Shown here piece by piece: positions 2,756 to 57,479 of a stretch of DNA of 57,604 nt. A program made the position numbers and the translations under genes. Source of the DNA: Candidatus Woesearchaeota archaeon (lineage in GTDB: Archaea; Nanobdellota; Nanobdellia; Woesearchaeales; UBA11576). The stretch lies in assembly GCA_016208715.1 (NCBI GenBank), contig JACQXV010000195.1:1-57604 (forward strand), given 5' to 3'. The notes under the pieces are model-generated. The model ran no database searches. It had not been told where the DNA came from and saw only the letters and a list, made by a program, of their open reading frames with translations. The stretch's first letter is position 1. The number at the start of each line of letters is the position of its first letter.

Positions 2756-2890
2756 GCAAATTCCTCTTTTGGTATTTAATGCTCACAAAGCAGGCAACTA
2801 ATGCGTTGGCAGATATTTAAAGTTTTTGTAATCTCAGGAATAAAAGAATAATCTGAAGAATAACCTCTGCGTAGAATAAGTAAATAAAAT

Positions 2891-3175
2891 GTATTTGTTT
2901 AGCTCACTTTGTGCGTTCACACTTTTCACGACCAGCACCGCGAGAGCCACGCTGCGCGTGTCTTCGCTCAACCAATGCCGCGTGAAGCTCAGGGCGCGAT
3001 GCTGGTTGCCGAATCGTGCCACCCCGTAAGGGGCGCGATGCTGGTTGCCGAATCGTGCCACCCCGTAAGGGACAACCCCCGTCACGAAGTGATACAGAAA
3101 TATTCATGCCCTTCGCAAACTTCACGGCGGCATTGGTTGTGCTGGTCGTGCGACAGTATGTGGCTAAACAAATAC
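2891..3175. mobile_element. MITE-like element, B-type termini (GTATTTGTTTAGC...GCTAAACAAATAC), 285 bp
   Basis: 13-bp terminal inverted repeats. An exact 8-bp direct repeat AATAAAAT flanks it at 2883-2890 and 3176-3183. The interior folds back on itself (CACGACCAGCAC at about 2928 pairs with GTGCTGGTCGTG at about 3140). It has no coding capacity. Confidence 0.75.
2993..3070. repeat. Perfect tandem duplication, 2 x 39 bp (GGCGCGATGCTGGTTGCCGAATCGTGCCACCCCGTAAGG), inside the MITE
   Basis: Units at 2993-3031 and 3032-3070 are identical by direct reading. Confidence 0.9.
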
Positions 3176-3182
3176 AATAAAA

Positions 3183-4916
3183 TTAATAGTTATCAGGAAT
3201 CCTTCGAAACACTTTGCGCAATCGTGTAAGCGGCAATGTGTTCACGACATCTGCTTTCGTGAGCCAGCCGCGCCGCGCCTGCGCAACTCCATACCGCATA
3301 TTGAGTAGTTGTGTTGAAGCGTGACTGTCAGTATCGATGGAAAATAGTAAGCCATATTCTTTTGCAATCCTGATGTGCGAGCCATTAAGATCAAGACGGG
3401 CGAGCTGACTGTTGATCTCGACTACCTTCTTATTCTGCGCCGCAACATCAAAAATCTTCGCGAAGTCTGCTTCATACGGTTCACGCTGCCCGATGAGCCG
3501 CCCTGATGGGTGTCCTAAAATGTCGAGATATTTATTCTCCAGTGCGGAACAAATCCGTTGTGTCATTTCCTGCTCGCTTGACTTAAAGCGTGAGTGAATA
3601 GAACAGACTGCAATGTGCAGTTGACGGAGGATCTCATCAGGATAGTCCAAAGTCCCGTCGGCGCGGATGTCGATCTCCGACCCTTTAAGGACGCGGATCT
3701 TGTATTTTCTCGACAGGGCATCGATTTGTTTCCATTGCTGTTTCAGCCTGTCTATTTCAAGGCCGTGCGCGATTCTTTCAGAAGGCGAATGGTCAGTGAT
3801 AGCAATATACTCATACCCGAGTTTTTGTGCTGCTGCAACCATCGCTTCGATGCTCTCTGTTCCATCGGAAAGCTTTGTGTGGACGTGAAGGTCGCCGCGG
3901 ATATCGGCAGCCTCAATAAGCTTTGGGAGTTTGCCCTTTTGCGCTGCTTCAAGCTCGCCTGCGGACTCCCGCAGTTCAGGAGGAACATAAGAAAATCCAA
4001 GTTTTGAGTATACTTCTTCTTCCGTTGCCCCGGCAACTTGTTCTCCCGTCTTCTTTGAAAAGAGGCCGTACTCTGAAAGTTTGTATCCTTTTTTGATCGC
4101 GATGTTCCGTAGCGCAATGTTGTGGTCTTTGCTTCCGGTGAAGTACTGCAGCGCTGCTCCATAACTTTTTCTTGGAAGTATGCGCAGGTCAACGTGCACG
4201 CCTTCTTTTAGGATGATGCTGCTTTTTGTCTTGCCTGAAGCAAGCACACGCTTGACAGAGGGGAGGTGCGTGAATGCGCGCGTGACCTTTGCTGCTTCGG
4301 ATGAGACTACAAGGATGTCGATGTCGCCGATAGTCTCTTTCATGCGCCGAAGCGAGCCAGCGTACTGGATCTGCTGTAGCTGCGCTCTCATCTTTAGAAA
4401 CGCGATAATCTCTTCTGCAAGTGGCAGTGCCCTTCCCAAAAGCATGCGTTGCCGCCCAAGTTCGTGTAGCGCGAGCGATTTAAGCAGGTTTTGTTCGCTG
4501 ACTTCTCCGAATCCGGCGACGTTTCGGAGTTTGTGCTCCTCAAGTGCTTTACTGAGACTTACAAGATTTTTGATGCCAAGTTTTTCGGTAAGGATTTTGA
4601 CTTTACGCGGGCCAAGTCCTTCTATTTCGAGAAGTTCCGTGTAGCCCTTGGGCGCTTTTTTAAGAATTGTCAGGAATCTTTGGACTTTTCCTTTTTTAAT
4701 GTATTCTATGATGTGGTCTGCTATGCCGGATCCAACGCCCGGAATTTCTTCGAGCCCTTTTTTTCCTTTGCTCTCGAAGATTCCAGCTAAATCGTCCTGC
4801 ATGGCTTCAATAGCTCGTGCAGCCTTGCGGTATGCTTCGGGTTTCCAGGGGACCTGCTGTAATTCAAGTACATCGGCAACGTCATACAGGAGTTTTACGA
4901 ATTGTTGGTTGATCAT
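3183..4916 (-). CDS. polX: Family X DNA polymerase (PolX) with C-terminal PHP phosphoesterase domain
   Basis: 577 aa. N-terminal HhH/Pol-beta-like region with the nucleotidyltransferase motif GDIDILV. C-terminal PHP motifs [12 protein letters not shown] and IAITDHS. The start overlaps the ligase stop (ATGA at 4913-4916). Confidence 0.9.
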
Positions 4917-6643: not shown

Positions 6644-6662
6644 GAGGATGAAAAATGCACCC

Positions 6663-7717: not shown

Positions 7718-7794
7718 GCTAACCCCTTTCAAAAGTGTGCTCGCTTCTTTGAGAAGGCCACACATACGTTATATTTATGTTTTATGGTAGCGGA

Positions 7795-7937
7795 GGCTCT
7801 GTCCCGAATCTGCCGCTGCCACCCTGCGAGCTGAAACGATTTACCTTGTGTTAGACATCCTCTCGGTTACGATATGACCAACACATTCACAGCGAGCGGT
7901 GCAGCGGCCGAGCGTAAGCGAGATTCGGGACAGAGCC
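7795..7937. mobile_element. MITE-like element, A-type termini (GGCTCTGTCCCGAATCT...AGATTCGGGACAGAGCC), 143 bp
   Basis: 17-bp perfect terminal inverted repeats. An exact 9-bp direct repeat GGTAGCGGA flanks it at 7786-7794 and 7938-7946. It shares the inner core (GCCGCTGCCACCCTGCGAGCTG ... CAGCGAGCGGTGCAGCGGC) with the other copies. Confidence 0.85.
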
Positions 7938-9257: not shown

Positions 9258-9303
9258 GGCTCTGTCCCGAATCTCGCTTACGCTCGATCGCTGCACTGGT
9301 GCA
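9258..9303. repeat. Solo half of an A-type MITE (one terminal arm only, inverted orientation)
   Basis: GGCTCTGTCCCGAATCTCGCTTACGCTCGATCGCTGCAC matches the reverse complement of the right arm of the 7795 and 37828 copies. No partner arm lies nearby. Confidence 0.55.
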
Positions 9304-11744: not shown

Positions 11745-11815
11745 TGCCTATTACAATCCAGTTCGCCTTCAAGCTGAGCTAAATAGCTAAATAAATACAA
11801 ATCAGGCAGAATTGG

Positions 11816-15208: not shown

Positions 15209-16213
15209 ATGATCGAGAACAGACCAGAACACTCGCACGACGAGGAATCACGGGCTTCAGATCACACGATGTGGACTGAAAAGTATCGTACAAAGAATTT
15301 TTCAGAAGTTCTTGGGCAAGACGAAATTGTTAAGCGCGTAGAGGCGTTCGTAAAGCAGAGGAACATGCCACACGTGCTTTTTTCCGGTCCTGCGGGGGTC
15401 GGGAAGACGTCGCTCGCACTCGTGATCGCGCGCCGGTTGTTCGGTGATTCGTATCACATGAATTTCCTTTAGTTGAATGCGTCGGACGAGCGCGGAATTG
15501 ATGTTATCAGAAACAAAGTAAAGGATTTCGCTCGGACGCGCTCAATCGGGGATGTACCGTTTAAAATTATTTACCTTGATGAGTGCGATGCGCTCACCAG
15601 GGAAGCTCAGCAGGCATTGCGCAGGACGATGGAAAATTTTACGCAAACAACGCGCTTCATTCTCTCAGCAAATTATTCAAGCAAGATCATAGATCCCATA
15701 CAATCGCGGTGCGCGATCTTTCGCTTCAAGCCTCTTGCAAAGGAAGATATCTTCAGGCTGATTGACAACATTGTCGGTCAGGAGGGGGTTAGGATCGATC
15801 CGGGAGCAAAAGAAGCACTCTACGTCATCTCACAAGGCGACTGTCGCCGGGTTGAGAATATCTTACAGAGCGCCGCGTCGATGGAGAAGCACATCACTGA
15901 AGAGGAAGTTTTTTCCCTTGCATCGATGGCAAGGCCCAAGGAAGTTAAAGAGGTTTTGGAGTTTGCACTTAAGAACAAATTCGTGGACGCCAGAAACAAA
16001 CTTTTAAATATAATGCTTGACTATGGATTGTCAGGAATTGACGTCATTAAGCAAATTCAGTCGGAGATCATCTCGCTTGACATTTCAGGAAAGCAGCGGA
16101 TGATTCTGATGGAGAAGTGCGGCGAGGTCGAGTTTCGCATGAGTGAAGGAAGTGATGAGTTTTTGCAGTTGGAGTCATTCCTTGCGCACGTCGCATTAGT
16201 TGGTATGCAGTGA
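15209..16213 (+). CDS. rfcS: Replication factor C small subunit, interrupted by one in-frame TAG at 15470-15472
   Basis: Walker A GPAGVGKT, NASDERGID, DExD box YLDECDAL and SRC motif IQSRCAIFRF. Track ORFs 15209-15472 and 15473-16213 are in the same frame and are separated only by TAG, at the position where RFC-S consensus (NF.E.NASDERGI) has Glu. Confidence 0.85.
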
Positions 16214-17383: not shown

Positions 17384-17535
17384 AACTCTGTCACGAATCT
17401 GCCGCTGCCACCCTGCGGGCTGGCGGCAGGCACATCGTCTCACAGGACTCTCGGTTCATGTTTAACTACTTTAATCAGTTTGACGTGCGCAACGAGCGTC
17501 GTGGCGACGCTGCAATTTAGGCGGCTAAAACAAAT
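17384..17535. mobile_element. Chimeric MITE-like element: A-type-like left arm, B-type right arm
   Basis: The left arm CTCTGTCACGAATCTGCCGCTGCCACCCTGCG resembles the A terminus. The right arm GAGCGTCGTGGCGACGCTGC...GGCTAAAACAAAT resembles the B terminus. No flanking direct repeat. Confidence 0.6.
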
Positions 17536-19677: not shown

Positions 19678-19792
19678 TGTACGTGGAAAGCTTCGTCGGT
19701 AAGCGAACTTCGCCACATATGTACGACCAGCACCGCTCAGACGCGCTGCGCGCATCTTCGCTCATTTTCCGCCACAGCCAGCTCGTGAGCGG
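19678..19792. repeat. D-type repeat copy 1 (115 bp), 4 mismatches to the copy at 57365-57479
   Basis: Direct comparison of the two copies. The segment ACGACCAGCACCGC..CGCTGCGCG..TCTTCGCTCA also matches the left inner arm of the 2891 MITE. Track ORFs 19677-19895 and 57358-57543 are translations of this repeat. Confidence 0.75.
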
Positions 19793-19802
19793 TTTCAGTG
19801 TA

Positions 19803-23484: not shown

Positions 23485-23624
23485 GTATTTGTTTAGCAGC
23501 GTCGCCACCGACCTGCGAGCTAACGGCTTTCACATCGTCTCGCACGACTCTCGGTTCGGTAAGCGGCTTAACTTACACAGCGAGCGTCGTGGCGACGCTG
23601 CGATGTGAGTAGCTAAACAAATAC
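23485..23624. mobile_element. MITE-like element, B-type, short form (140 bp)
   Basis: TIRs GTATTTGTTTAGC and GCTAAACAAATAC. 13-bp perfect inner stem GCAGCGTCGCCAC/GTGGCGACGCTGC. It differs from the 43835 copy by 2 substitutions and 1 indel. No clear TSD. The right TIR overlaps the last 4 codons of gene 23613-24812. Confidence 0.8.
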
Positions 23625-24812
23625 GAGCCAGTCGGTGATATCTCTCTTATAGTCTGCTTCTTTTTGGTAGATGTTGGTCTCATGCCCGTTGAAGTTGATC
23701 TTGCCTGTCTTGAGTTCTTTGCTATCGAGGAACTTGAGTCGCAGTTCTACGCTGTAGCGTCCTGCTTTGAGGTCATTGATGGTGTTTTGGGTGATGTCGA
23801 AGTAAAACACGGGTTGCGTGATTTGTTTCATCTCTGATGTAATCTTAGTTAGATCCACAAGGTAGTTTCCTTTTTCGGTTCGGAAGATGATGAGGTTTTC
23901 TCCCTCGCGCAGAATATCCGGCGTGAATTCAATCGTGACCTTACCGCCGCAATCAGGCAGTGTTGAGTAGACGGAGTGGCCATTGATTGTGATATCAAGT
24001 TTTCCTACTTTTGTGACTTCACAGTCAGGAGCGAAGCGTAGAACACTGCGTTGCACGTTGTTCTTCTCGGTCGCGCTCACGATGAAGCTGTTCTGGCTTC
24101 GTTGTTGAGTAACGTCAGTAACATCTGCGGAAATTTGGACTGTTTGCAGACCGAATTCGTGCACGCGCCAGAAAAGCCACCCGACTCTGCTTGATTCAAA
24201 TTCGAGCGTATTCTTACCTTGCAGCAGACTTGACTTAGCAAGACGGAGCGGTTCGACGTTTTCTTGCGTGATCGGTCCATTGAATATCTCATTTCCGTTA
24301 AGTCGGATTACCAAACGTCCTTTGCTTCGGGTCGTTGCGCGAAATGTAAGAAGGACGTTGTCCGTATTTTCAAAGTCGCTGATTGCGAACGTCACGTTTG
24401 CGCGCTCTTGCCGCATGAATGTCGTTCGAACATAGAGGTTACTTCGCGTCTCAAGGATTTTGGCATTTTCCTTTGCAAAGAGATAGACTGCTCCGATGTT
24501 ATGCTCTATGTCTTTAGTGTCAAGGGGTGAGAGGGTTCCGGGTGTTGCTAAGAGCAGTGTATCGTTTGCACCGCCAGTCCCTGGTCCGGTCGTGGTGGTT
24601 TGATTTCCTTCCAGGATCTGGTCACGAAATTCAGGTGGAATGAAAAGGAGATAGAAGATAATGAGCAGTGCAAGGAGCGCTACAAGCGTTGCTGCAGCGT
24701 TTGCATCGGCTTGAGCTTTGGTGCATCGGCCCCGCTGAGAAAAATACGTTGAATAATGCGTTGAATAAGAGGCATTGTATGAATACATTGGAGACCGAAC
24801 CGACCGAACCAT
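23613..24812 (-). CDS. Membrane-anchored beta-rich protein (399 aa), function unknown; first gene of surface cluster 1
   Basis: Single N-terminal hydrophobic segment ATLVALLALLIIFYLLFIPP, then a T/G-rich linker and a beta-rich domain. The final codons VFV and the TAG stop lie inside the MITE terminal repeat. Confidence 0.6.
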   Translation of the reverse strand: MVRSVRSPMYSYNASYSTHYSTYFSQRGRCTKAQADANAAATLVALLALLIIFYLLFIPPEFRDQILEGNQTTTTGPGTGGANDTLLLATPGTLSPLDTKDIEHNIGAVYLFAKENAKILETRSNLYVRTTFMRQERANVTFAISDFENTDNVLLTFRATTRSKGRLVIRLNGNEIFNGPITQENVEPLRLAKSSLLQGKNTLEFESSRVGWLFWRVHEFGLQTVQISADVTDVTQQRSQNSFIVSATEKNNVQRSVLRFAPDCEVTKVGKLDITINGHSVYSTLPDCGGKVTIEFTPDILREGENLIIFRTEKGNYLVDLTKITSEMKQITQPVFYFDITQNTINDLKAGRYSVELRLKFLDSKELKTGKINFNGHETNIYQKEADYKRDITDWLVFV

Positions 24813-24916: not shown

Positions 24917-25972
24917 ATGAAGGTTGTTTCATTTCATAAGAATGTAGCCTCCCTGCGCATTGAAAGCTTGGATGACTTGTGGTATTTGAGTTCGCTTCTG
25001 GAAGCGGGCGACTTGGTTGAAGGAAAGACGATGCGAAAGATCAAGCTCGGCGGAGGGGAGGAGCGCTCCACAAGCGTCGTAAAGAAGCCCGTGTATCTCA
25101 AGATTGAAGTCGAAAAGGTTGAGTTTCATAAGTTCTCAAATAATTTACGCGTTGCGGGAAGAATTCTGGAAGGGACTGAGGATATTCCAAAAGGAAGCTA
25201 TCATACTTTCGCGATCGAAGATGACTCTCAAATCAAACTTCAAAAGGGGGAATGGCTTTCGTTTCATAAAGAGCGCTTGCGTGAAGCGAGTAAAGAGCGG
25301 CGGCCGCCATTACTCATCTGCGTGTTTGATCGTGATGAGGCCTTAATCGCGATCATGAAGCAATATGGGTATGATCTTCTTGCACACCTGCATGGTGCTG
25401 TCCAGAAGAAACGTGATGTCACGCAGGTCACGTCAAACTTTTACGAAGAGATTGAGAATGCGATCAAGGAGTACATTGACCGTTTTCATGTTCGCAGTGT
25501 TCTCATGGCAAGTCCGGGATTTTGGAAAGATGAATTCCTCAAAAACCTTAAAGATGACGCACTGAAGAAGAAGATCGTTTTTGCAACTGTAAGTAGTGTA
25601 GACAAGGGAGCAATCAACGAACTGCTTGGGCGCCCTGAAGTAAAGTCTGTGCTGCAACAGGAGCGTTTTGCGCAGGAAGTGGCGCTGGTGAACGACTTAT
25701 TATCGGCTATTGCAAAAGTCGGACTCGCCGCCTACGGTCTCAAAGAGACTGCTGCAGCCGCAGAGGCTTGTGCAGTCAAACGTTTGCTGATCACCGACGG
25801 ATTTCTACAAAAAAAGCGAGAGCAAGATGCATTCGAGCCCATTCAAACCCTCTTGCATACCGTAGATAAAGGGAAAGGCGAGATCCACATCATCAGTTCA
25901 GATCATGACGGTGGCAAGAAGCTCGATGGGCTTGGCGGCATTGCTGCACTACTTCGATTTGCAATATCATAA
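24917..25972 (+). CDS. pelA: Pelota (Dom34 homolog), mRNA surveillance / ribosome rescue factor
   Basis: 351 aa. The N-terminal LRIESLDDLWYLSSLLEAGDLVEGKT pattern and the eRF1-like domain layout are typical of archaeal Pelota. Confidence 0.9.
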   Translation: MKVVSFHKNVASLRIESLDDLWYLSSLLEAGDLVEGKTMRKIKLGGGEERSTSVVKKPVYLKIEVEKVEFHKFSNNLRVAGRILEGTEDIPKGSYHTFAIEDDSQIKLQKGEWLSFHKERLREASKERRPPLLICVFDRDEALIAIMKQYGYDLLAHLHGAVQKKRDVTQVTSNFYEEIENAIKEYIDRFHVRSVLMASPGFWKDEFLKNLKDDALKKKIVFATVSSVDKGAINELLGRPEVKSVLQQERFAQEVALVNDLLSAIAKVGLAAYGLKETAAAAEACAVKRLLITDGFLQKKREQDAFEPIQTLLHTVDKGKGEIHIISSDHDGGKKLDGLGGIAALLRFAIS

Positions 25973-26120
25973 AAATCCGCCGCAGGCGTTCCACTCCGCA
26001 CTAAAGTGCGGAGTGGAACGCCTGCTTTGATAGGCGGATTTTTAGGATGCCAAAAACTTCGCCCTGAAGGGCGGGGTTTTAAACCCCGCACAAAAACATC
26101 TGGCGAAGTTTTTGTGCATC
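25971..26120. repeat. C-type two-hairpin repeat, copy 1, fused to the Pelota stop codon
   Basis: Outer stem AAAAATCCGCC/GGCGGATTTTT encloses a perfect 20-bp hairpin with a TAAA loop. A second hairpin pairs CAAAAACTTCGCC with GGCGAAGTTTTTG around GCCCTGAAGGGCGGGGTTTTAAACCCC. The architecture and anchor sequences match the copy at 36630. Confidence 0.65.
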
Positions 26121-26129: not shown

Positions 26130-26162
26130 GTATTTGTTTAGCAACGCCGCCGACACGCGCGA
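26130..26162. repeat. Truncated left end of a B-type MITE (TIR plus partial core), ending exactly at the ackA stop codon
   Basis: GTATTTGTTTAGCAACGCCGCCGACACGCGCGA matches the B-type left terminus and then breaks off at 26162/26163. Confidence 0.55.
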
Positions 26163-27269
26163 TCAGCGTCTTGTCAGTTTCAGAAGGTGTTCTACTTCCC
26201 GTGCAATCATCAATTCTTCATTTGTCGGGATCACGAGCGCCTTGATGCGCGAAGAATATTTTGTAATGATCGCCTTATTCTTTCTGTTTGCGCTAGAATC
26301 GAGAGCGACGCCGATGCAGGAAAGTTGTTTAAGGACGTTCTCTCGTAAAAGTGCTGCATGCTCTCCTATCCCTGCAGTAAAAACGATCGCATCGCACCCT
26401 CCAAGTTCTACGTAATATGCTCCAAGATATTTCACAAGGCGATGACACATTACGTCAAATGCGAGCCGCGCGTGCTGCGAACCCTTTCCTTTCCACGACT
26501 TCATCGATGCAATGATGTCGCGCAAGTCTTTTTTTCCAGACAGTCCGAGAAGCCCCGATTCCTTATTGAGTAGATTGACGACGCGCGCTGCGGGAATCTT
26601 TTCCTTTTCTGCAAGGTACGCGACGAGTGCAGGATCAAGATCACCGCTTCGGCTTCCCATCACGAGGCCTTCAAGAGGTGTGAATCCCATACTTGTATCG
26701 ACTGACTTGCCGCGGTCGATTGCGCATATTGACTGGCCATTGCCAAGGTGGCAGGTGATGAGTTTAAGCTGTGCTAGTGGTTTGCCGAGGATCTTTGCCG
26801 CTTCGTGAGCGACGTACTTGTGGCTGATGCCATGGAAACCGTACCTTCGGATGTGATACTTGTTTGCAAATTTGCGCGGTATCGCATAGGTGTATGCTTT
26901 TGGCGGCAGAGTTTGATGAAATGCTGTGTCAAACACTGCGACTTGCGGTACGTTCATCAATGAAAGACATACCTTAATGCCTTCTACTTCGGAAGGATCG
27001 TGGAGCGGTGCGAGTTCGCAAAGCATCTCCAGTTGCTTCACAACGGCCGGCGTGATTATTTCTGGTTGCGTATGCGCTCCACCGTGCACCACGCGGTGTC
27101 CGACCGCGTCAATTGTTCTATTGCATGACTTGACATCCGCGATGACTTGTTTCATGCCCTTGCAGTAATTAGTGACTCGTTCAAGATACCCGCGTGTGAC
27201 GAGTTTTTGAGATGCAAAAAGAGAATACTTGATTGACGACGAACCGATGTTGAGAACTAGAATGTTCAC
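26163..27269 (-). CDS. ackA: Acetate kinase
   Basis: Motifs VLVLNIGSSSIKY, HRVVHGG, GFHGISH and FTAGIGE. I place the start at an in-frame GTG (27269), 4 nt after the pta stop, rather than at the track ATG (27329), which overlaps pta by 56 nt. Confidence 0.9.
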   Translation of the reverse strand: MNILVLNIGSSSIKYSLFASQKLVTRGYLERVTNYCKGMKQVIADVKSCNRTIDAVGHRVVHGGAHTQPEIITPAVVKQLEMLCELAPLHDPSEVEGIKVCLSLMNVPQVAVFDTAFHQTLPPKAYTYAIPRKFANKYHIRRYGFHGISHKYVAHEAAKILGKPLAQLKLITCHLGNGQSICAIDRGKSVDTSMGFTPLEGLVMGSRSGDLDPALVAYLAEKEKIPAARVVNLLNKESGLLGLSGKKDLRDIIASMKSWKGKGSQHARLAFDVMCHRLVKYLGAYYVELGGCDAIVFTAGIGEHAALLRENVLKQLSCIGVALDSSANRKNKAIITKYSSRIKALVIPTNEELMIAREVEHLLKLTRR

Positions 27270-28311: not shown

Positions 28312-28363
28312 CTTTTTCAGCTATCTTAGCCCTTCATTTGTATTGTTATTTGTATTGTTTATT

Positions 28364-28612
28364 GTATTGTTTAGCGGCCTCGCCACCGACCCGCGAGCTA
28401 GCAGTTCTTGCATAGTCTCGCACGATTCTCGGCTCGTTACGTGAGTTAAAACTTTACACATTAATCCTTTACACATTAATTCAAAATTCATCTAAAAACG
28501 GATAGTCGAAGCGACTTCGACGAAGTCGAATGTAACCTGAAGGTGCCAGCCGACTTTTCAGCTGACGGCGAGCGTCGTGGCGACGCTGCTAACTGAGTGG
28601 CTAAACAAATAT
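28364..28612. mobile_element. MITE-like element, B-type termini, long form (about 249 bp)
   Basis: Shares the common core plus a roughly 130-bp inner module with copies at 38503 and 46172. The left TIR tip is reiterated (GTATTGTT three times at 28340, 28352 and 28364). There is an internal 14-bp tandem duplication CTTTACACATTAAT. No clear TSD. Confidence 0.7.
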
Positions 28613-35773: not shown

Positions 35774-36631
35774 ATGGATTTAATGAAGGAGAAACACGCG
35801 CAACGGCAGGGAGCTCCCGCGGCAAGCACAGTTTCTGTGGAACGTCAGCGAGTGGAGAAAGCAGAGAAAGAGTTTAAACACTACGCGCCCAGAGAGAGCT
35901 TCCTGGATAAACAAATCAGTATTCGTGCGCTCGTGCGAAACGTAATTGTAGTACTTTTAATTTTGGCAATTCTCGCAGCGGTCTTCTTGCTGGGCCGCTG
36001 GAGTGCCCTTTCTTCTTCTAAAGATTCACAAAATCTTACAATAACATCACTGAATTCAAATACGGTAATGCAAAAAGGAACTGCCAAGCCTACCATGAAC
36101 GTTTCTGAGAACGCGGCAAAAGCGTCCGTCGGTGCACCAAATGCGAGCGTACCAAAAGAAGAAAATAAAACGGCCATTGCACCTGAAGAGGCGTCCGCGG
36201 CACAAATGAAGCCCTCGGTGACAAACGTGACAGCAACTCCATCAACCACTCCTGAAAAGGCCGGTGAAGGTTTTGAATACAAGAGCGTTGGCGTCTATAT
36301 TGGCGAAGTCAAGCACCTTAAGAAAGGCGATGATTGGGGTACAGTGACTTCGATTGAAGTGACGGTGGAAAACCTTGAGAAGGTATTAGTATATCCTGTA
36401 AAAGTCAAAGCGCGATTGTACAAAGCCGGTGAGGAAGGCAACTGGTGGGACATGGAGGAGGACGTTCCTGCGCTCATGACCCAGTTGGCATCAAAGGCAA
36501 GCGCCAAATACACCTTTGAGACGCACATCTCTTACAGTGGTCTTACTGAGGAGAAAACGCTTAAGGTTGTAGTGTTTGATCAATATAATCAAAAGATGGG
36601 AGACGTCATCAAGACGGTGACATTGTCATAA
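35774..36631 (+). CDS. Single-pass membrane protein (285 aa), function unknown
   Basis: One TM segment (VIVVLLILAILAAVFLLG), an S/T/A/P-rich linker and a beta-rich C-terminal domain. The last codon and stop (TCATAA) are part of C-type repeat copy 2. Confidence 0.5.
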   Translation: MDLMKEKHAQRQGAPAASTVSVERQRVEKAEKEFKHYAPRESFLDKQISIRALVRNVIVVLLILAILAAVFLLGRWSALSSSKDSQNLTITSLNSNTVMQKGTAKPTMNVSENAAKASVGAPNASVPKEENKTAIAPEEASAAQMKPSVTNVTATPSTTPEKAGEGFEYKSVGVYIGEVKHLKKGDDWGTVTSIEVTVENLEKVLVYPVKVKARLYKAGEEGNWWDMEEDVPALMTQLASKASAKYTFETHISYSGLTEEKTLKVVVFDQYNQKMGDVIKTVTLS

Positions 36632-36761
36632 AAATCCGCCGAAAGCACCCTACCTCGGGCTAAAGCCCGAGGCTTGACGGGCACTTTCTTTGACTGCGGA
36701 TTTTTAGGACGCCAAAAAAGAGCCAACGCCCTAAAGGGCAGGGCTATCTTTTTTGAGCGTC
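36630..36761. repeat. C-type two-hairpin repeat, copy 2
   Basis: Same anchors as copy 1 (TCATAAAAATCCGCC ... GCGGATTTTTAGGAYGCCAAAAA ... GCCCTRAAGGGC) and a TAAA loop. Both hairpin stems have different sequence but keep their pairing (CTCGGGC/GCCCGAG; GACGCCAAAAAAGA/TCTTTTTTGAGCGTC). Confidence 0.65.
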
Positions 36762-37805: not shown

Positions 37806-37820
37806 TTTAAAGGTTTAATA
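37806..37820 (+). promoter_or_regulatory. TATA-like box (TTTAAAGGTTTAATA), probably the original tfe promoter, now separated from tfe by a MITE
   Basis: It matches the recurrent AAGGTTTAWA motif and sits immediately left of the MITE target-site duplication. Without the insertion it would lie about 10-25 nt from the tfe start codons. Confidence 0.4.
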
Positions 37821-37827
37821 TTGAGGT

Positions 37828-37971
37828 GGCTCTGTCCCGAATCTGCCGCTGCCACCCTGCGAGCTGAAGCGATAAACAGGTTGCTTAAACATCCTCTCGG
37901 CAAAAGATTACCTGATATGTTCACAGCGAGCGGTGCAGCGGCCGAGCGTAAGCGAGATTCGGGACAGAGCC
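37828..37971. mobile_element. MITE-like element, A-type, 144 bp
   Basis: 17-bp perfect TIRs GGCTCTGTCCCGAATCT/AGATTCGGGACAGAGCC. An exact 9-bp TSD TATTGAGGT sits at 37819-37827 and 37972-37980. Arms are near-identical to the 7795 copy, with a different central loop. Confidence 0.88.
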
Positions 37972-37981
37972 TATTGAGGTA

Positions 37982-38500
37982 TTGCACCCATTGACAGGCA
38001 TAAAGTTATCAAACAAGCTCGTGGAAGACGTAGTTGAGGAAGTTGCAGGAGAAGATGTTCTCCCATTAGTGCGCGCACTCAAGAATAAAAAGAATATTTC
38101 TGAGTTCAAGCTTGCAGAGATGATCAGCCAAGAAGTAAACATCATCCGCAATATGCTGTACCGCCTGCACCAGGCCAACTTGGTCACGTTCACGCGCAGA
38201 AAAGATAAGAAGAAGGGATGGTACATCTACTATTGGACATTTCGCATCAAGCAGATAAAGTATTTGGCGATGAGTTTGCGCAAGACGCGCTTGGAAAAAC
38301 TGAAGGACCGGCTGAATCGCGAAAAGGAGAGTTGTTTCTTTCTGTGCCCAAATGGGTGCATGCGTCTTGATTTCGAGCAGGCGATAAGCTTCGAGTTCAA
38401 GTGTCCCGAGTGCGCGACCATCATGAACCAGGAGCATAACGAGAAAAAGATCAAGGATGTCGAGGAGGAGATCAGGAGCATTGAGAAGGAAGTTGTTTGA
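37982..38500 (+). CDS. tfe: Transcription factor E (TFIIE alpha homolog)
   Basis: Winged-helix N-terminus (EDVLPLVRALKNKKNISEFKLAEMISQEVNIIRNMLYRLHQANLV) and zinc ribbon CPNGC...CPEC. There is no ATG near the N-terminus, so a TTG start at 37982 or 37991 is implied. Confidence 0.85.
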   Translation: MHPLTGIKLSNKLVEDVVEEVAGEDVLPLVRALKNKKNISEFKLAEMISQEVNIIRNMLYRLHQANLVTFTRRKDKKKGWYIYYWTFRIKQIKYLAMSLRKTRLEKLKDRLNREKESCFFLCPNGCMRLDFEQAISFEFKCPECATIMNQEHNEKKIKDVEEEIRSIEKEVV

Positions 38501-38502
38501 TC

Positions 38503-38736
38503 GTATTTCTTGGCGGCAGCACCACCGACCCGCGAGCTAGCGGTTCTTACCGCGTCTCGTGCGATTCTCGGCTCGTTACGTGAGTTAAAACTTTACACAT
38601 TAATTCAAAATTCATCTAAAAACGGATAGTCGAAGCGACTTCGACGAAGTCGAATGTAACCTGAACGTGCCAGCTGACTTTTCAGCTGACGGCGAGCGTC
38701 GTGGCGACGCTGCAAAGTGATCTGATAAACAAATAC
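38503..38736. mobile_element. MITE-like element, B-type termini (left TIR degenerate), long form, 234 bp
   Basis: An exact 8-bp TSD GTTTGATC sits at 38495-38502 and 38737-38744; the left copy contains the tfe TGA stop. The inner module is nearly identical to the 28364 copy. Confidence 0.82.
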
Positions 38737-38793
38737 GTTTGATCAATCGGCGGCATTTTCTATCTTGCGCCTTATCTTTTCATGGTGTACTTG

Positions 38794-40701: not shown

Positions 40702-40825
40702 AGTGTGACCTCCTTTTTGGAAGAATACTCGATTGTTATCGTAGTAATCTGGCCTATTTCTGTGCCTATTTATTAGGCTGTTGCTGGTATATAAAGCTTG
40801 CGCACGTAAACTTGGGATCTGCACC

Positions 40826-40978
40826 AAATATGCCGCCACCGACCCGCGAGCTGAAGGTTTTTAGATCATCTCGCACCATTATTTCTCGCACGATTCAGTA
40901 TGTGACTCAAGTTGAACTTGCGCAGCGAGTATCGTGGCGGCGCTGCGATAAAATCAACTAAACAAATATGGAAATCAG
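40826..40978. mobile_element. MITE-like element, degraded B-type copy (left TIR missing)
   Basis: Core GCCGCCACCGACCCGCGAGCTG ... CAGCGAGTATCGTGGCGGCGCTGC and a right terminus ACTAAACAAATA. There is no left GTATTTGTTTAGC and no TSD. Confidence 0.55.
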
Positions 40979-43834: not shown

Positions 43835-43975
43835 GTATTTGTTTAGGCAGCGTCGCCACCGACCTGCGAGCTAACGGCTTTCACATCGCCTCGCACGATT
43901 CTCGGTTCGGTAAGCGGCTTAACTTACACAGCGAGCGTCGTGGCGACGCTGCGATGTGAGTAGCTAAACAAATAC
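43835..43975. mobile_element. MITE-like element, B-type, short form (141 bp), near-twin of the 23485 copy
   Basis: Exact TIRs. An exact 8-bp TSD GAATAAAT sits at 43827-43834 and 43976-43983. The element lies 33 nt upstream of the MCM ATG. Confidence 0.88.
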
Positions 43976-46035: not shown

Positions 46036-46161
46036 GTCAGCATACCACCAATCTATGATTGGTGGATAGTGGTGGTATGCTGAGCATGCTCAAAAGGTGG
46101 CAGGGGTGAGCGAAGCGAACATGCCACCAGTCTTGGACTGGTGGTTCCCTGCCGCCTTTTG
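46036..46161 (+). other. Two strong hairpins directly downstream of the mcm stop (possible 3' structure, terminator or repeat relic)
   Basis: H1: CAGCATACCACC (46038-46049) pairs with GGTGGTATGCTG (46071-46082), with an inner CCACCAAT/ATTGGTGG stem. H2: CAAAAGGTGGCAGGG (46091-46105) pairs with CCCTGCCGCCTTTTG (46147-46161), with an inner CCACCAGTC/GACTGGTGG stem. Confidence 0.45.
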
Positions 46162-46171
46162 ACATTCTCAA

Positions 46172-46408
46172 GGCTCTGTTTGGAATTGTGCTGCTGCCAC
46201 CCTGCGAGCTGAAAGGCCCACCTTGTCTCGTGCGATTCTCGGCTCGTTGTGTGAGCTAAACCTTTGCACATTAATTCGAAATTTATTTAAAATCGGGGTA
46301 GTCGAAGCGACTTCGATGAAGTCGGATGTCGTCCGAAGGTGCTAGCTGACTTTTCAGCTAACAGTGCGCGATGCAGCGGCCGCTGAAAGAGAAATTCCGC
46401 ACAGAGCC
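46172..46408. mobile_element. MITE-like element, diverged A-type termini carrying the long inner module
   Basis: GGCTCTGTTTGGAAT...GCTGCCACCCTGCGAGCTG on the left and ...GCAGCGGCCGCTGAAAGAGAAATTCCGCACAGAGCC on the right. The interior is homologous to the 28364 and 38503 copies. No TSD. Confidence 0.65.
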
Positions 46409-46417
46409 AGAAAGTAA

Positions 46418-46432
46418 GAAAGTTTTAAATAG
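46418..46432 (+). promoter_or_regulatory. TATA-like box (AAAGTTTTAAATAGC) about 27 nt upstream of the ATG at 46454; implies a leaderless mRNA
   Basis: Spacing and composition fit an archaeal BRE/TATA. No Shine-Dalgarno sequence precedes the ATG. Confidence 0.5.
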
Positions 46433-46453
46433 CTCGCGCCAGCAAATTGCCGT

Positions 46454-53619: not shown

Positions 53620-53658
53620 TAGAATAAGAATTGATGAGAAAGAATTAATGAAAAATCG

Positions 53659-53821
53659 GTATTGTTTAGCAGACCTTTAGCAGATCGTTTCGCGGAACGG
53701 CCACGACACTCGCTGCGCACGTAAAACTGGTTAACTAAGTTAGTTAACTAACTTGGAATCGTGCGAGACGAGGTGAATGCCGTCAGCTCACGGGTCGGTG
53801 ACGGCGCCGCCAAACAAATAC
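53659..53821. mobile_element. MITE-like element, B-type termini, inverted orientation, 163 bp
   Basis: TIRs GTATTGTTTAGC and CAAACAAATAC. An exact 8-bp TSD AAAAATCG sits at 53651-53658 and 53822-53829. The core arms are recognisable in reverse complement. The interior holds a TTAACTAAGTTAGTTAACTAACTT palindrome-like stretch. Confidence 0.82.
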
Positions 53822-53855
53822 AAAAATCGGGGAACCGAAAATGGGAGGAGATAAA

Positions 53856-55211
53856 TTACGTTGGCGTTTGAGCCGTGCTGTTTTCCGCGGTTGCGTTCTC
53901 TGCTGAAAATTTGCTTAAGCCTATCCCACCAAAAAGTGTGTAAATGTCCTGCTGTTGTCCTGACTGTGCTAAAGCTGGAACAGAGTTCGCTAGCCCCATC
54001 AGTTTACATGAGTTCTTTGCCTGTTCAATAGTGATCCTGCTACAATATTGTGCATCACGCGTTTGCAGCACGACTTGCAGATAGCATGAGTCTTTCCCGC
54101 GCGTCCCGTTGATGAACTCGCAAAAGTTCCCTTGAGTCTTGAATGTTGCAAGCATAGTGATGCATTGAGCGACATTGCTCTCGAAGTCGAATGTTTGGCA
54201 GAGCCCTGCTGCGCGGTTGGGTTCACGTACTGCCATTTGTTTAACAATCTCGAATGCCTCTTCCTTGGTTTTTCCTTCAAAGGGACCGGCGGGCTTTGGC
54301 GGCGTTGGCTGCGCTAGTGGCTGCGCAGGCTTAAGCGGCAGAAGTATTGGCTTAGGTGCTTCGGTTGGTGGAGTCTGTGCAGTAATGTTAGGTTTCTTCT
54401 CTTCAACGATGGGTACCTTCTTTCTTATTTCTTCGAGCTTTTGCTTTGCTATTTGTTCGGGTTCGATGGTGAAGATAAATCCTGATGTTGCTGTGTAATT
54501 TCCGTACAGCGCGTCCGTGCGTAATACGTATTCGCCGGGCGTGATGTCTTCTGGGAGCAGGAAGGTCACAACGCGTTGCGTTGTGGTGGCAATTGCGACA
54601 GTCTCTTGTTGCTCAAGAATGGTCTGGTCAGTTTCTTTTCGTAGGATTCTATAGCGTAGCGTGATATCATACGGCTGCAGCTTTCCAAAGTTAATGACGT
54701 CTGTCGTGAAGATGAAGTCCTCGCCAGGGATGGGGATGGTCGTCAGCTTGTTAACTTTCACGTCGAGGAGCGCTGTTGCTTCGGAAGGTTTTGCAGCAAG
54801 CACAAACATTTTGACATAAAAGAAGGACATGACTCCGCTCATTACGATGATTGCAATGAGCGCAAAGACGACGAGTTTGTGCTCCGCGTGGATTTCTTTT
54901 GCGGGTGCAGTGACGAGGTTAATTGCTGAATCAACTTCATAATATAGATATCCTTTGCTGACAAGAAATTCTTTGATTGTGTTGAGTGGGTATCCCGCGC
55001 GCTGTTGCTGCTGGATATAGTACGAGAGCTGCTGGATGCGTTGGTTTGCAGCAAGCTGCGGGTTTTGTTGGAGATTAATAACGTACTGGATCGAGCTCTC
55101 GACTTCTGCGCGATCATAGCCTGAATTGATGAGAAAGTTGTTGATTGCCTCAATTGTTTGTCCTGCTTGAAGTTGGGTGATAATATACGCAACGAGGCTT
55201 TGTTGTATCAT
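53856..55211 (-). CDS. Membrane protein (451 aa): two N-terminal helical repeats, TM, beta domain, Pro-rich linker, Cys-rich C-terminal domain
   Basis: The N-terminal motif is repeated (YIITQLQAGQTIEAINNFLINSGYDRAEVESSIQYV and YIQQQQRAGYPLNTIKEFLVSKGYLYYEVDSAINLV). TM segment VVFALIAIIVMSGVMSFFYV. PTPPKP-type linker. Confidence 0.55.
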   Translation of the reverse strand: MIQQSLVAYIITQLQAGQTIEAINNFLINSGYDRAEVESSIQYVINLQQNPQLAANQRIQQLSYYIQQQQRAGYPLNTIKEFLVSKGYLYYEVDSAINLVTAPAKEIHAEHKLVVFALIAIIVMSGVMSFFYVKMFVLAAKPSEATALLDVKVNKLTTIPIPGEDFIFTTDVINFGKLQPYDITLRYRILRKETDQTILEQQETVAIATTTQRVVTFLLPEDITPGEYVLRTDALYGNYTATSGFIFTIEPEQIAKQKLEEIRKKVPIVEEKKPNITAQTPPTEAPKPILLPLKPAQPLAQPTPPKPAGPFEGKTKEEAFEIVKQMAVREPNRAAGLCQTFDFESNVAQCITMLATFKTQGNFCEFINGTRGKDSCYLQVVLQTRDAQYCSRITIEQAKNSCKLMGLANSVPALAQSGQQQDIYTLFGGIGLSKFSAENATAENSTAQTPT

Positions 55212-55352
55212 ATAAGATACGAAATTGGTTTTTACTTATTTAAATATTGTGGGATGCGCACAAGCCGGGATGCACGATATCTATGAAGATGAAATTTAGA
55301 GGAAGGCGGATGGAAAGAAAGATTTATAATAACTCTCTTTTCTCAAATTAAG

Positions 55353-55645
55353 GTATTTGTTTAGCAGCGTCGCCACCGACCCGCGAGCGAATGCGGTGGT
55401 TTGATGTAGGTGCGACTTGCTTGTCGGTGCATTGAGCGTGTTGGGCTTTTTCATGATCATTCCTGCGACTCATGACATCCCCGAAGGGGATCCCTGTCAT
55501 TCGTCGACGCGAGGCAGGATTCCCAAAGGGATGCCGAGCGTCGCAGGAAGGATTATTCACAAAAAGCACGACTGCACCACGCAAATCACAACGGAAGATG
55601 GCGAGCGTCGTGGCGACGCTGCGATGTGAGTAGCTAAACAAATAC
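55353..55645. mobile_element. MITE-like element, B-type termini, 293 bp with a distinct interior
   Basis: About 40 nt at each end match the short-form copies at all but one position. An exact 8-bp TSD AAATTAAG sits at 55345-55352 and 55646-55653. The roughly 200-bp interior is unrelated to the other copies and contains several hairpins. Confidence 0.85.
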
Positions 55646-55673
55646 AAATTAAGCAAAAGTTGTGGTGGCGGCG

Positions 55674-56435
55674 ATGGTTGTTAGTGGAGAAGAACAAACA
55701 AATCAAGCTTCGAACGATGTCCTCCCTTCATCAGGTAGGCGCGAGACCGCAGTTCATGTGCGCATTGCTGACGTTCTCGCGGGCGAGTATACAAAACGAG
55801 AGGGGTGGGAACCAAATACGATAGATCTTGGTAATTTTCATTTTTCTCGCGTGAATCTGTTGGGAGTGATTGTTTCGGGCAGAGCGACAGGGGAGGGTCT
55901 CGCGTCATCGGTGTTGGTGCTTGATGATGGTTCTGGCCAGATCGTGTTGCGTTCATTCGACACGCGGTCTTTTTCGGTAGTGGTGGGTGATTTGGTGCTG
56001 GTGATTGGGCGTCCTCGTGAATTTGCTGGTGAGCGGTATGTTGTGCCTGAGATCGTTCGTAAATTAGATAACCCCAAGTGGGTTGATGTCCGAAAGCGGG
56101 AATTGGAACTTCTTGACGGCGAACGTTTAGATAAAAGAAACGCCGGAGATGCGGCAAGCGGTGCGACGGGGCAACAGAAGAGCGCGAGCGACGAAAGCAC
56201 AACAATTGTTGTGAGCGAAGAAGCGATATCGAACGTAAATACACAACCAGCAAAGAGCAATCCTGCCGAGAGAATTCTTGAAGTAATTCGTGCAAAAGAC
56301 TTAGGGTCAGGTGTCGCGTTTGAAGATATTTCTGCCGCATGCCCGGAGAGTGATGTTGAAGCATTTCTTCGTCGTCTGATCGAATCAGGAGACGTGTTTG
56401 AATTGCGGGCGGGAAAGTATAAGTCCCTTGAGTAA
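55674..56435 (+). CDS. RPA32/Stn1-like OB-fold protein with C-terminal winged helix
   Basis: The OB-fold pattern RVNLLGVIVS...VLDDGSGQIVLRSFD...GDLVLVIGRPREFAGERYVVPEIV is followed by an acidic linker and a wHTH-like tail. ATG at 55674 preferred over the track GTG. Confidence 0.6.
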   Translation: MVVSGEEQTNQASNDVLPSSGRRETAVHVRIADVLAGEYTKREGWEPNTIDLGNFHFSRVNLLGVIVSGRATGEGLASSVLVLDDGSGQIVLRSFDTRSFSVVVGDLVLVIGRPREFAGERYVVPEIVRKLDNPKWVDVRKRELELLDGERLDKRNAGDAASGATGQQKSASDESTTIVVSEEAISNVNTQPAKSNPAERILEVIRAKDLGSGVAFEDISAACPESDVEAFLRRLIESGDVFELRAGKYKSLE

Positions 56436-56451
56436 TTCGCGCGGGTTCTCT

Positions 56452-57321
56452 CTAGAAGAGAATGGGCGTAATGTAAGATTCGATGACGGCTGAAGCAAAG
56501 AGTATCACTAGTGATAAGATCAAGAGCGAGCTTGTATCAAAGAGTATTTTGTGAAATTTCTCATTCTGGGTGTGATGATTTATAATTGCCGCACCGATTA
56601 TGCCGCCGGCAAGGCCTGCAATCATATACGCGATCATTTCGGGAAGTCCATGGATGAAATATCTAGAAAATGAGAATGAGATCGTTTGCAAGTAGGCCAC
56701 GACCTTCGTGAATCCTATGGTTGCCGCGTACTTTTTGATGCCAATTTTGATGAGGTTGCCAATCGCGACGGCGACAACGCTCGCGTTCCAGGTGAGGATG
56801 AAAATTGCTCCGGCGCCGTAGATGAACGAGAAGATGATGCAGAAAATAAGAACTTTAAGGTTGTTGCTGAAGACACGTAAGAGTATCTGTGATGAAACTG
56901 CGTTGCTCGTGGCGCCATCGGCCGTATTCGCAACGGGTGCATTGATTTGTGCGATGGTGGTTGTTTGCTGCCGAAACATGACCGAGCTAATGTCTGCGGG
57001 AAGCACTACGTACCAGGTGACAAGGGCAACGGTCATTCCTAAGAAGAGAAAAATGTAGAATGCGATGAGTTTGCTGTGTTCTGTAAGGATGCCTTTCTCT
57101 GTTGGCAAGAGCAAATCTTTTTTCTCTTCAATTCGTATGGAGTGGAACATGAGAGGCGTTGCAGCAAAGACAATGAGAAAAATCATGACGAGATCTGCTT
57201 TATCCCGGAATACCCAATAACTCAAAAATAAACTGATGGATGAGATGAGAAGGCCGTAAAAGAATAGTTCCCACGGGCGTTTTTCCGCGCGCAAAGGACG
57301 GATGATCGATTCAAGAACCAT
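56452..57321 (-). CDS. SpoIIM-like (DUF95) integral membrane protein
   Basis: 289 aa with about 6 TM segments. FSNNLKVLIFCIIFSFIYGAGAIFILTWNASVVA is a pattern typical of the SpoIIM family. Confidence 0.6.
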   Translation of the reverse strand: MVLESIIRPLRAEKRPWELFFYGLLISSISLFLSYWVFRDKADLVMIFLIVFAATPLMFHSIRIEEKKDLLLPTEKGILTEHSKLIAFYIFLFLGMTVALVTWYVVLPADISSVMFRQQTTTIAQINAPVANTADGATSNAVSSQILLRVFSNNLKVLIFCIIFSFIYGAGAIFILTWNASVVAVAIGNLIKIGIKKYAATIGFTKVVAYLQTISFSFSRYFIHGLPEMIAYMIAGLAGGIIGAAIINHHTQNEKFHKILFDTSSLLILSLVILFASAVIESYITPILF

Positions 57322-57364
57322 GCTACTTTTATTTAAAAGACATTATTTAAATGTTTCTTGGGAA

Positions 57365-57479
57365 TGTACATGGAAAGCTTCGTCGGTAAGCAAACTTCGC
57401 CACATATGTACGACCAGCACCGCTCAGACGCGCTACGCGCATCTTCGCTCAATTTCCGCCACAGCCAGCTCGTGAGCGG
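57365..57479. repeat. D-type repeat copy 2 (115 bp shared with 19678-19792); related structured sequence may continue to the window edge
   Basis: 4 mismatches in 115 nt versus copy 1. Downstream sequence holds further hairpins (ATAAGGGA-atgc-TTCCCTTAT) and a GACATCCCC motif also found in the 55353 element. Confidence 0.7.

Follow-up and report, generated by a model that had tools for sequence, protein, structure and literature searches.

The 57,604-nucleotide window considered here (the whole stretch of DNA that was analysed) belongs to a Woesearchaeota (DPANN) archaeon and carries housekeeping genes, and it raises the question of what the hairpin-forming repeats in its spacers are and how they have spread. 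We consider it probable that they are MITEs, short non-coding deletion derivatives of related insertion sequences, moved in trans by DDE-type transposases encoded outside the window. The MITE family is a new one; the kind of element is already known, and this is an unusually dense example of it. Searches with BLAST and nhmmer recovered 17 copies or fragments in the window: 12 with the shared core, an A-end fragment (9258), two solo B ends (11786 and 26130) and two copies of a related repeat (19678 and 57365), the interior of which is shared with the copy at 2891. Elements measure 140–293 bp, and the family accounts for 4.9% of the window's sequence and for 38% of the intergenic DNA in it. A member is present in 16 of the 30 spacers of at least 60 bp, so that the preliminary description, which placed members in most spacers, was slightly generous.

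The recurrence of the constituent motifs far exceeds what shuffled sequence produces. Each of four motifs (two terminal ones, the core stem and the internal one) is present 7–16 times, as against 0.1–1.7 expected: with up to two mismatches GTATTTGTTTAGC is found at 16 sites (1.7 expected) and GTGGCGACGCTGC at 13 (1.5 expected), and with up to three mismatches GGCTCTGTCCCGAATCT and TCTCGCACGATTCTCGG are found at 7 sites each (0.14 and 0.24 expected, respectively). No shuffle equalled the observed count for any of the four motifs. These counts, together with the inventory, bear out the proposal of a dense, modular, hairpin-forming MITE-like family.

Perfect terminal inverted repeats (TIRs), of 13 bp in B-type and 17 bp in A-type elements, stand at the very tips of the elements, and direct reading of the sequence confirmed that each of the seven reported target-site duplications (TSDs) is exact, with a length of 8 bp in five cases and 9 bp in two. 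The five 8-bp TSDs flank B-type elements: 2891..3175 (+), which has a different interior, "core 2", with the stem CACGACCAGC/GCTGGTCGTG and an internal 39-bp exact tandem duplication (TSD AATAAAAT, at 2883–2890 and 3176–3183); the long element 38503..38736 (+), the TSD of which, GTTTGATC, includes the TGA stop of TFE-alpha; the short element 43835..43975 (+) in the TBP/MCM spacer (TSD GAATAAAT); 53659..53821 (−), in reversed orientation (TSD AAAAATCG); and 55353..55645 (+), with a highly structured interior of 230 bp (TSD AAATTAAG). The two 9-bp TSDs flank A-type elements, namely the 143-bp element 7795..7937 (+), in which the 17-bp TIR is GGCTCTGTCCCGAATCT (TSD GGTAGCGGA), and the 144-bp element 37828..37971 (+), which lies between a promoter-like AAAGGTTTAATAT on one side and the TFE-alpha start codon on the other (TSD TATTGAGGT). 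An eighth TSD, TACTACTC, was found in the relative L036, and a ninth, TATCGAAGA, flanks an element in the relative L047 with a terminus of type C, a type found only in a relative. TSD length tracks terminus type, being 8 bp for 6/6 B-type elements and 9 bp for 3/3 elements of type A or C (Fisher p = 0.012), and the involvement of more than one transposase is thereby supported.

Four full-length copies are without a clear TSD, and two of them are chimeras. In 17384..17535 (+), alignment columns 1–30 are 90% A-type, B-type sequence forms the interior and right arm, and the termini have degenerated at both ends. In 46170..46408 (+), the termini GGCTCTGTTTGGAATT/AAATTCCGCACAGAGCC are of a further type, A', the left arm is A-like and the interior is ~85% identical to the long B interior. 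The other two are the long B-type element 28363..28612 (+), with an interior module of ~150 bp and two additional tandem 12-mers directly before its left terminus (28340–28362), and the short B-type element 23485..23624 (+), which is 140 bp long with perfect termini, the right one supplying the final codons and stop of the ORF 23613–24812 (−). The latter is 98% identical to the copy at 43835, from which it differs by two substitutions and one indel over 141 aligned columns, and the A-type copies have arms that are 100% identical around loops that are ~70% identical; such near-identical copies point to recent activity. Loss of parts is equally visible. An old B-type copy, 40816..40969 (+), has lost the left terminus that its ortholog in the relative L065 keeps intact; 9258..9296 (−) is a truncated A-type right end comprising terminus, spacer and the beginning of the stem; 11786..11798 (+) is a solo B-like right terminus, GCTAAATAAATAC, with one mismatch and no core, and is a weak case; and 26130..26170 (+) is a solo left terminus of type B, its left arm degenerate, directly adjoining the acetate kinase stop codon. 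The related "R/core 2" repeat is partial at 19678..19799 (+), where it has the terminus-like GTACGTGGAAAGC and 95% identity to 57365–57486, and its second copy, 57365..57604 (+), reaches the contig end, the assembly breaking within the repeat. Copies adjoin promoters or ends of the core replication and transcription genes for PCNA, MCM, TFE and TBP.

Interiors are thus exchanged between terminus types, as had been described, and the explanation first offered was that two transposases mobilise recombining modules or that a structured module has been captured. The dependence of TSD length on terminus type and the chimeras speak for the former, but the termini are not unrelated modules: A' is identical to B at 8 of 13 positions and to A at 10 of 13, and the A, A', B and C termini are diverged versions of one GGC-N-Y-TGTT-like end, such as IS903-group and IS6 elements have. 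Since the whole architecture (terminus, right-side spacer, stem with an extra C, GCGAGC) is homologous throughout the types, one ancestral element that diverged and then recombined is more economical than the capture of a foreign structured module.

Comparison with related genomes, recommended earlier as a search for empty sites, did uncover such sites in L046, L047, L064 and L066, several of them read directly. L046, with an MCM 83% identical to that of the window, has no family member in a syntenic stretch of 22 kb, and none was found in the syntenic DNA of L064 or L066. The site of the 43835 copy is empty in L047, L064 and L046; two closer relatives (MCM 91%) lack this copy but have others, one of them with an 8-bp TSD. 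The spacer orthologous to the 38503 site measures 13 bp in L046 and 44 bp in L066, and that orthologous to the 53659 site is 77 bp and empty in L046. The copy at 40816 is common to the window, where it is decaying, and L065, and in another case the same spacer holds different elements in the window and in a relative. These presence/absence differences indicate that the elements are mobile. Had they been vertically inherited non-coding RNA genes or regulatory hairpins, their intergenic location and strong predicted folding (−60 to −136 kcal/mol) would be as expected; exact TSDs, empty orthologous sites and the occupation of one spacer by different elements would not, folding is about equally good on both strands, and Rfam gave no match over the whole window at gathering scores or at E up to 1. 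We therefore regard RNA genes, the alternative named at the outset, as refuted by the empty sites and the lack of an Rfam match, and hardly credible as an account of the family. ARAGORN found no tRNA in the window.

The hairpin itself has properties that plain inverted repeats by themselves leave unexplained. In both A and B arms the predicted fold is a stem, a 1-nt C bulge, 3 bp, a 2-nt bulge, 2 bp, a tandem G.A loop and 3–4 bp, identical although the stem sequences differ, and 14 of the 29 predicted pairs show compensatory changes. GCGAGC stands on the same strand of both arms in A, A' and B and partly in C, giving a conserved G.A/A.G mismatch, and all terminus types keep the asymmetric hairpin with its extra C and tandem G.A loop. 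In addition, 14 of 16 copies are oriented alike (p = 0.004) on what looks like one replichore, third-codon GC skew along the window being positive for genes of either strand. The same-strand GCGAGC with the extra C, and the shared orientation, are what simple inverted repeats do not account for.

One could accordingly envision that the asymmetric hairpin core is the functional unit, a strand-specific folded DNA or RNA signal recognised in single-stranded form, for example within a transcript or at a replication fork, and either needed for mobilisation or useful to the host, perhaps as a terminator, insulator or protein-binding site, with several transposase-specific termini spreading one structured module. 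The A-type copy at 37828, which has to be transcribed either together with tfe or before it, would suit such a role, as would the convergent spacers of at least 60 bp, all six of which hold at least part of a MITE (in two, a solo B end only) or another hairpin. However, covariation between arms is expected also of plain inverted repeats bound by one protein, three copies are antisense to both adjacent genes, the two copies in L036 (n = 2) are oppositely oriented, no Rfam family was matched, and the combination of TIRs with TSDs fixed at 8 or 9 bp is the hallmark of double-strand integration by DDE enzymes. Nor does the orientation bias demand single-strand chemistry, since DDE insertion sequence families may show a replication-relative bias without it (PMC3971601). 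The strand difference in stability is a further point against: the top strand is merely 0.3–3.6 kcal/mol more stable than the bottom, too little to carry weight as the cause of the bias. We think this explanation unlikely, and extend the same small probability to its combined form, in which a family that makes TIRs and TSDs is coupled to replication, or a host-useful structured module is spread by several transposases, through a strand-specific hairpin signal that the 14/16 bias reflects, with transposases that a host cell, plasmid or virus might even supply to the reduced genome from without. Three structural readings were examined and dropped. A pairing between the internal motif CTCGCA and the TGCGAG of the left arm shows no consistent covariation among copies and is absent from A types; a kink-turn would have a three-nucleotide bulge followed directly by tandem G.A/A.G, whereas here two base pairs separate the G.A loop from a 2-nt bulge; and a C/D-box reading was rejected by eye.

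The extrahelical bases and the orientation bias relative to the putative direction of replication might also recall REP/BIME-like or IS200/IS605-derived palindromes moved on single-stranded DNA by a tyrosine (HUH) transposase. Such elements have subterminal hairpins, depend on an HUH Y1 transposase, and have neither terminal inverted repeats nor target-site duplications. In the present family the TIRs extend to the extreme ends and the TSDs are exact copies of constant length, and no TnpA, Y1 or RAYT gene is present in the window; we consider this origin most improbable.

We thus return to DDE-mediated movement of MITEs. The elements would be short (140–290 bp) derivatives that arose by deletion from a single group of related insertion sequences, each consisting of two functional "ends" of ~45–55 bp with a freely evolving loop between them, an end being made up of terminal repeat, right-side spacer, GC-rich stem and GCGAGC motif. 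The ends being inverted copies of each other, the element as a whole can fold back into a long hairpin, and the conserved asymmetric stem may serve as an internal transposase-binding region within long, imperfect inverted repeats. Related transposases, at least two and probably three in number, would act in trans from beyond the window, with B ends (GTATTTGTTTAGC) directing 8-bp staggered cuts and A and C ends (GGCTCTGT... and GGCGTTATTGAA...) directing 9-bp cuts. Copies insert into AT-rich DNA adjoining promoters and gene ends, recombine with one another into chimeras and decay through loss of termini.

The cognate transposases would have to lie elsewhere: the window holds no transposase, in agreement with the earlier observation that no matching autonomous insertion sequence is there, and no autonomous element with matching ends was found in the window or in the loci fetched from relatives. 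The elements encode no protein, as had been stated; a six-frame pseudo-protein from four of them matched nothing among 5.8 billion proteins. Scans of sequence collections for the family were by exact match and found no copies beyond this small clade. The exact core searched in 185,579 species genomes, JGI metagenomes and IMG/VR gave chance GC-rich matches and one close relative, and the exact 20-mer and 22-mer core in genome and metagenome contigs gave chance matches in high-GC bacteria and one true relative, L036. Scans of IMG/VR with the A terminus and with the B terminus plus core yielded chance matches or none, blastn of one B element against PLSDB plasmids and INPHARED phages yielded no match, and exact-protein look-ups of the window's MCM (with a wrong GTG start) and PheRS-beta returned no record.

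Among known insertion sequences, the ends seem most like those of the IS903 group (IS5 family) or the IS6 family. IS903B has the inverted repeat GGCTTTGTTGAATAAATC and 9-bp direct repeats (PMC10569121). The C-type terminus GGCGTTATTGAAAACCT is identical to the IS903 inverted repeat at 12 of 17 positions (p about 1e-4, for one comparison); A, A' and B ends match it at 9 of 17, with IS26-type ends fitting about as well, and A and A' share GGCT-TGT and GAAT. The 9-bp TSDs of A and C (3/3) agree with this group, whereas B elements make 8-bp TSDs (6/6) and are without the GGC tip; the likeness extends over 13–17 nt only, and no IS5-family transposase was found in the window or fetched loci. IS6/IS26-family elements have GG tips, cTGTt and caaa motifs in the inverted repeat and 8-bp direct repeats, with only two MITEs in ISfinder (PMC7986276). 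A and A' ends start GGCTCTGT(T), matching GG..cTGTt, yet make 9-bp TSDs, whereas B ends make 8-bp TSDs but start GTATTTGTT; the caaa motif is absent from the window's family, and again the window and fetched loci hold no such transposase. Movement in the IS6 family proceeds through cointegrates, a poor fit to simple MITE insertions.

In general form the family is alike to other prokaryotic MITEs (Sulfolobus SM1–SM4, Haloquadratum, Halobacterium, Correia/NEMIS and Coxiella QMITE2) in its size of 140–290 bp, TIRs, fixed-length TSDs and lack of an ORF, and likewise in its AT-rich intergenic targets, strong fold-back, many copies and presence/absence polymorphism between close relatives (reviewed in PMC10969869). 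It differs in combining several terminus types, with different TSD lengths, on one conserved asymmetric stem, in that no cognate insertion sequence was found in the window and fetched loci, and in its host, a DPANN archaeon with a reduced genome. An automated census placed a Woesearchaea genome, at 105 per Mb, among the most MITE-dense archaea (PMC11602168). The very high density first remarked upon is upheld locally, the ~240–300 per Mb in this window (a figure for the window only) exceeding the published archaeal maxima of 105–146 per Mb (PMC11602168). BOX elements of Streptococcus pneumoniae and enterobacterial BIMEs show similar module shuffling and dense hairpin-forming intergenic repeats, but without the TIR-plus-TSD signature that the present family has (four full-length copies being without a clear TSD).

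DPANN genomes are small and streamlined; still, one recently active MITE superfamily occupies ~5% of this window, and 38% of the intergenic DNA in it. The family breaks the assemblies of related genomes, affecting MAG quality, and it supplies dated presence/absence markers between close lineages. It is also a compact natural system for studying the sharing and recombination of non-autonomous partners among several related transposases. Should the asymmetric hairpin or the orientation bias turn out to be functional, classical cut-and-paste elements would be tied to replication or to RNA-level roles in archaea.

The terminal, core, and internal motifs named in the preliminary description are all present in the window far above expectation: the B terminus GTATTTGTTTAGC occurs at 16 sites with up to two mismatches (1.7 expected), the A terminus GGCTCTGTCCCGAATCT at 7 (0.14 expected), the core stem GTGGCGACGCTGC at 13 (1.5 expected), and the internal motif TCTCGCACGATTCTCGG at 7 (0.24 expected). 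Its seven target-site duplications (TSDs) proved exact on direct reading, five of 8 bp on B-ended copies (2891, 38503, 43835, 53659, and 55353, named by start coordinate) and two of 9 bp on A-ended copies (7795 and 37828). BLAST and nhmmer inventories give 12 shared-core copies. To these are added a fragment of an A end (9258), solo B ends at 11786 and 26130, and a related repeat, R, present twice (19678 and 57365), whose interior is also found inside B-ended copy 2891. At ∼2.8 kb in total, the family makes up 38% of the intergenic DNA and 4.9% of the window overall; of 30 spacers measuring 60 bp or more, 16 contain a member. As had been noted, no matching autonomous IS accompanies it, none of the window's ORFs being a transposase, integrase, or HUH enzyme.

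Five loci from relatives, obtained via MCM and IF-2B homologues, bear out the proposal that these elements are mobile DNA: some insertions are old and common to relatives, some are recent and lineage-specific, and more distant relatives have none. A 22-kb stretch of an 868-kb JGI contig (L046; MCM 83% identical), collinear with window 33.4–57.3 kb, carries no family member, and its spacers matching element-bearing window spacers are short and empty (e.g., TFE/IF-2B, 13 bp versus 293 bp in the window); in L066 (IF-2B 66% identical), also lacking family members, this spacer is 44 bp. Copy 43835, between TBP and MCM, is missing from both L047 (GCA_016219765.1) and L064 (Logan SRR22388352), although the MCM of each is 91% identical, and it differs from copy 23485 at only three positions (two substitutions, one indel) across 141 aligned columns, a near-identity that indicates recent activity. 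Other copies do occur in the same close relatives: copy 40816, which has lost its left terminus, has an orthologue with intact ends among the terminal B copies of L065, and L036 holds one B copy with TSD TACTACTC. This pattern of presence and absence refutes the alternative that the elements are conserved RNA genes; the window gave no Rfam match at gathering scores or at E up to 1. A third type of terminus, C ((G)GCGTTATTGAAAACCT, 9-bp TSD TATCGAAGA), occurs in L047 in the spacer downstream of MCM (3690–3940), where the window has an A′ copy without a TSD (46160–46440). A promoter-like AAAGKTTTAAATAGC lies 9 nt downstream of the C element and 10 nt downstream of the A′ copy; either this spacer is a hotspot for insertion, or one element has replaced another there.

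Terminus identities of 10/13 (A versus A′), 8/13 (A′ versus B), and 8/13 (B versus R) lead us to regard the termini as diverged forms of a single sequence. Across the window and relatives, TSD length tracks terminus type (8 bp for six B copies, 9 bp for three A or C copies; Fisher p = 0.012), a pattern pointing to two or more related transposases that differ in stagger. Interiors had been described as swapped between copies, and two copies do align as clear chimeras: 17384 has an A left end (90% over the first 30 columns) and a B interior and right end, and lacks a TSD, as expected if recombination joined two copies from different sites, while 46170 has A-like termini and left arm around an interior ∼85% identical to that of the long B copies. 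Of the two explanations offered in the preliminary description, TSD length and the chimeras thus favor two transposases acting on recombining modules; capture of a foreign structured module, which would have to have occurred twice, is not favored, given termini diverged from one sequence and chimeras showing exchange. One ancestral element would then have diverged alongside its transposases, with segments still being exchanged.

All terminus types share one plan: terminus, right-side spacer of 10–12 nt (in relatives also 11–16 nt on the left), GC-rich stem, CY dinucleotide, GCGAGC (carried by both arms on the same strand), and a variable loop of 50–230 nt. The stem has one extra C in its left arm (B, GCCAC-C-GAC; A, GCTGC-C-ACC; C, GCCAC-C-GCC). 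Minimal A and B arms have an identical predicted shape, whether folded as RNA or DNA (stem, 1-nt bulge, 3 bp, 2-nt bulge, 2 bp, 2×2 G.A/A.G loop, 3–4 bp), and compensatory changes between types occur at 14 of 29 consensus pairs. Whole elements are predicted to fold at −36 to −136 kcal/mol, all but truncated 40816 at −55 kcal/mol or stronger, with the two strands roughly equal. Within a type the arms are conserved far above the loop (100% versus ∼70% identity in A copies), which marks them out as the portion under selection for propagation. A plain inverted repeat would not need the extra C or the G.A/A.G loop, both of them conserved asymmetries; they could mark recognition of a folded single strand, or could simply be IRL/IRR differences inherited from a parent IS. 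The two strands differ little in stability (0.3–3.6 kcal/mol).

Orientation is also biased, 14 of 16 orientable copies lying on the window's + strand (p = 0.004), as do 11 of the 12 with core 1, the shared core (p = 0.006). Genes beside co-oriented copies occur on both strands, and L036 shows that relatives can depart from the bias. Measured along the + strand, GC skew at third codon positions is positive in + genes (0.15) and − genes (0.20) alike, and the window therefore probably belongs to a single replichore; replication-related orientation bias is known in DDE IS families (PMC3971601). We consider it unlikely that the hairpin and orientation features reflect anything mechanistically unusual.

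Because no transposase was found, family assignment is by resemblance only. IS903B has the IR GGCTTTGTTGAATAAATC and 9-bp repeats (PMC10569121), the latter equal to the TSD length of the A and C types; it is identical to the C terminus at 12 of 17 positions and has GGCT-TGT and GAAT in common with A and A′. The IS6 family signature is a GG tip, cTGTt, and 8-bp repeats (PMC7986276). This signature matches the A/A′ tips and the TSD length of B copies comparably well, and an IS26-type end resembles the termini to about the same degree. A third possible candidate is the IS1595 family, with ends of the GGCnnTG type and 8-bp repeats.

Several copies adjoin coding sequence. A 399-aa ORF (23613–24812, −) takes its final three codons (V F V) and its TAG stop from the right terminus (23612–23624) of B copy 23485, which lacks a TSD. 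A copy 37828 (region 37810–37991) separates the TFE-alpha start (TTG at 37982 or 37991; the relative's Met codon is ATA here) from a promoter-like AAAGGTTTAATAT, so that tfe mRNA probably starts within, or reads through, the element. Long B copy 38503 struck the TFE-alpha stop codon, and the duplication kept it intact, TSD GTTTGATC (38495–38502 and 38737–38744) including the TGA. Long B copy 28363 has two extra terminus-like tandem 12-mers before its left terminus (28340–28374: GTATTGTTATTT GTATTGTTTATT GTATTGTTTAGC), and 2891 an exact 39-bp tandem duplication (2992–3069), each unit closed by a CCCCGTAAGGGG hairpin. A second hairpin family, unrelated to the MITEs (25969–26045 and 36629–36705), has an outer stem AAAAATCCGCC...GGCGGATTTTT enclosing an inner hairpin that varies, with a further GC hairpin after it; its two copies each separate convergent genes and resemble bidirectional terminators. 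Each of the six convergent spacers that measure 60 bp or more contains either a hairpin of this second family or at least part of a MITE, which in two of them is only a solo B end.

The genes are archaeal housekeeping genes (PolX, ATP-dependent ligase, PCNA, PAN, RFC, MCM, TBP, TFE-alpha, PheRS, TyrRS, eRF1, Ack/Pta, and others); no tRNA gene was found in the window. The top MCM matches are annotated as Candidatus Woesearchaeota or Nanoarchaeota, making the host a DPANN archaeon. In the RFC small-subunit gene (15209–16213, +), an in-frame TAG (15470–15472) replaces the Glu of conserved NFLELNASDERG; the halves (87 and 246 aa) each match RFC/AAA domains, and the interruption could be a pseudogene, sequencing error, or recoding. 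An ORF running past the window start (3–2060, −; >686 aa) encodes a type I/III restriction-enzyme R subunit (ResIII, SWI2_SNF2, Helicase_C) and, at 34% GC versus ∼47% in the remaining window, was probably acquired horizontally.

An exact core search of 185,579 species genomes found the family in GCA_016219765.1 only, the same search of JGI metagenome contigs and IMG/VR did not find it, and blastn against plasmids and phages gave no match; within the limits of exact-match searching, its range appears limited to a narrow Woesearchaeota clade. Family members lie across contig ends in this lineage (the window at 57365–57604, L065 at both ends in B copies, L036 at its start), so the repeats are breaking short-read assemblies, which implies many more copies genome-wide. 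MITEs are well known in archaea (PMC10969869), and an automated census (PMC11602168) already counts one Woesearchaea genome, with 105 per Mb, among the archaea richest in MITEs; local density in the window is ∼240–300 per Mb. The novelty lies in the family and its anatomy: this local density, three or four types of terminus, with TSD length specific to the type, on a single conserved asymmetric hairpin, clear chimeras, and a marked orientation bias.
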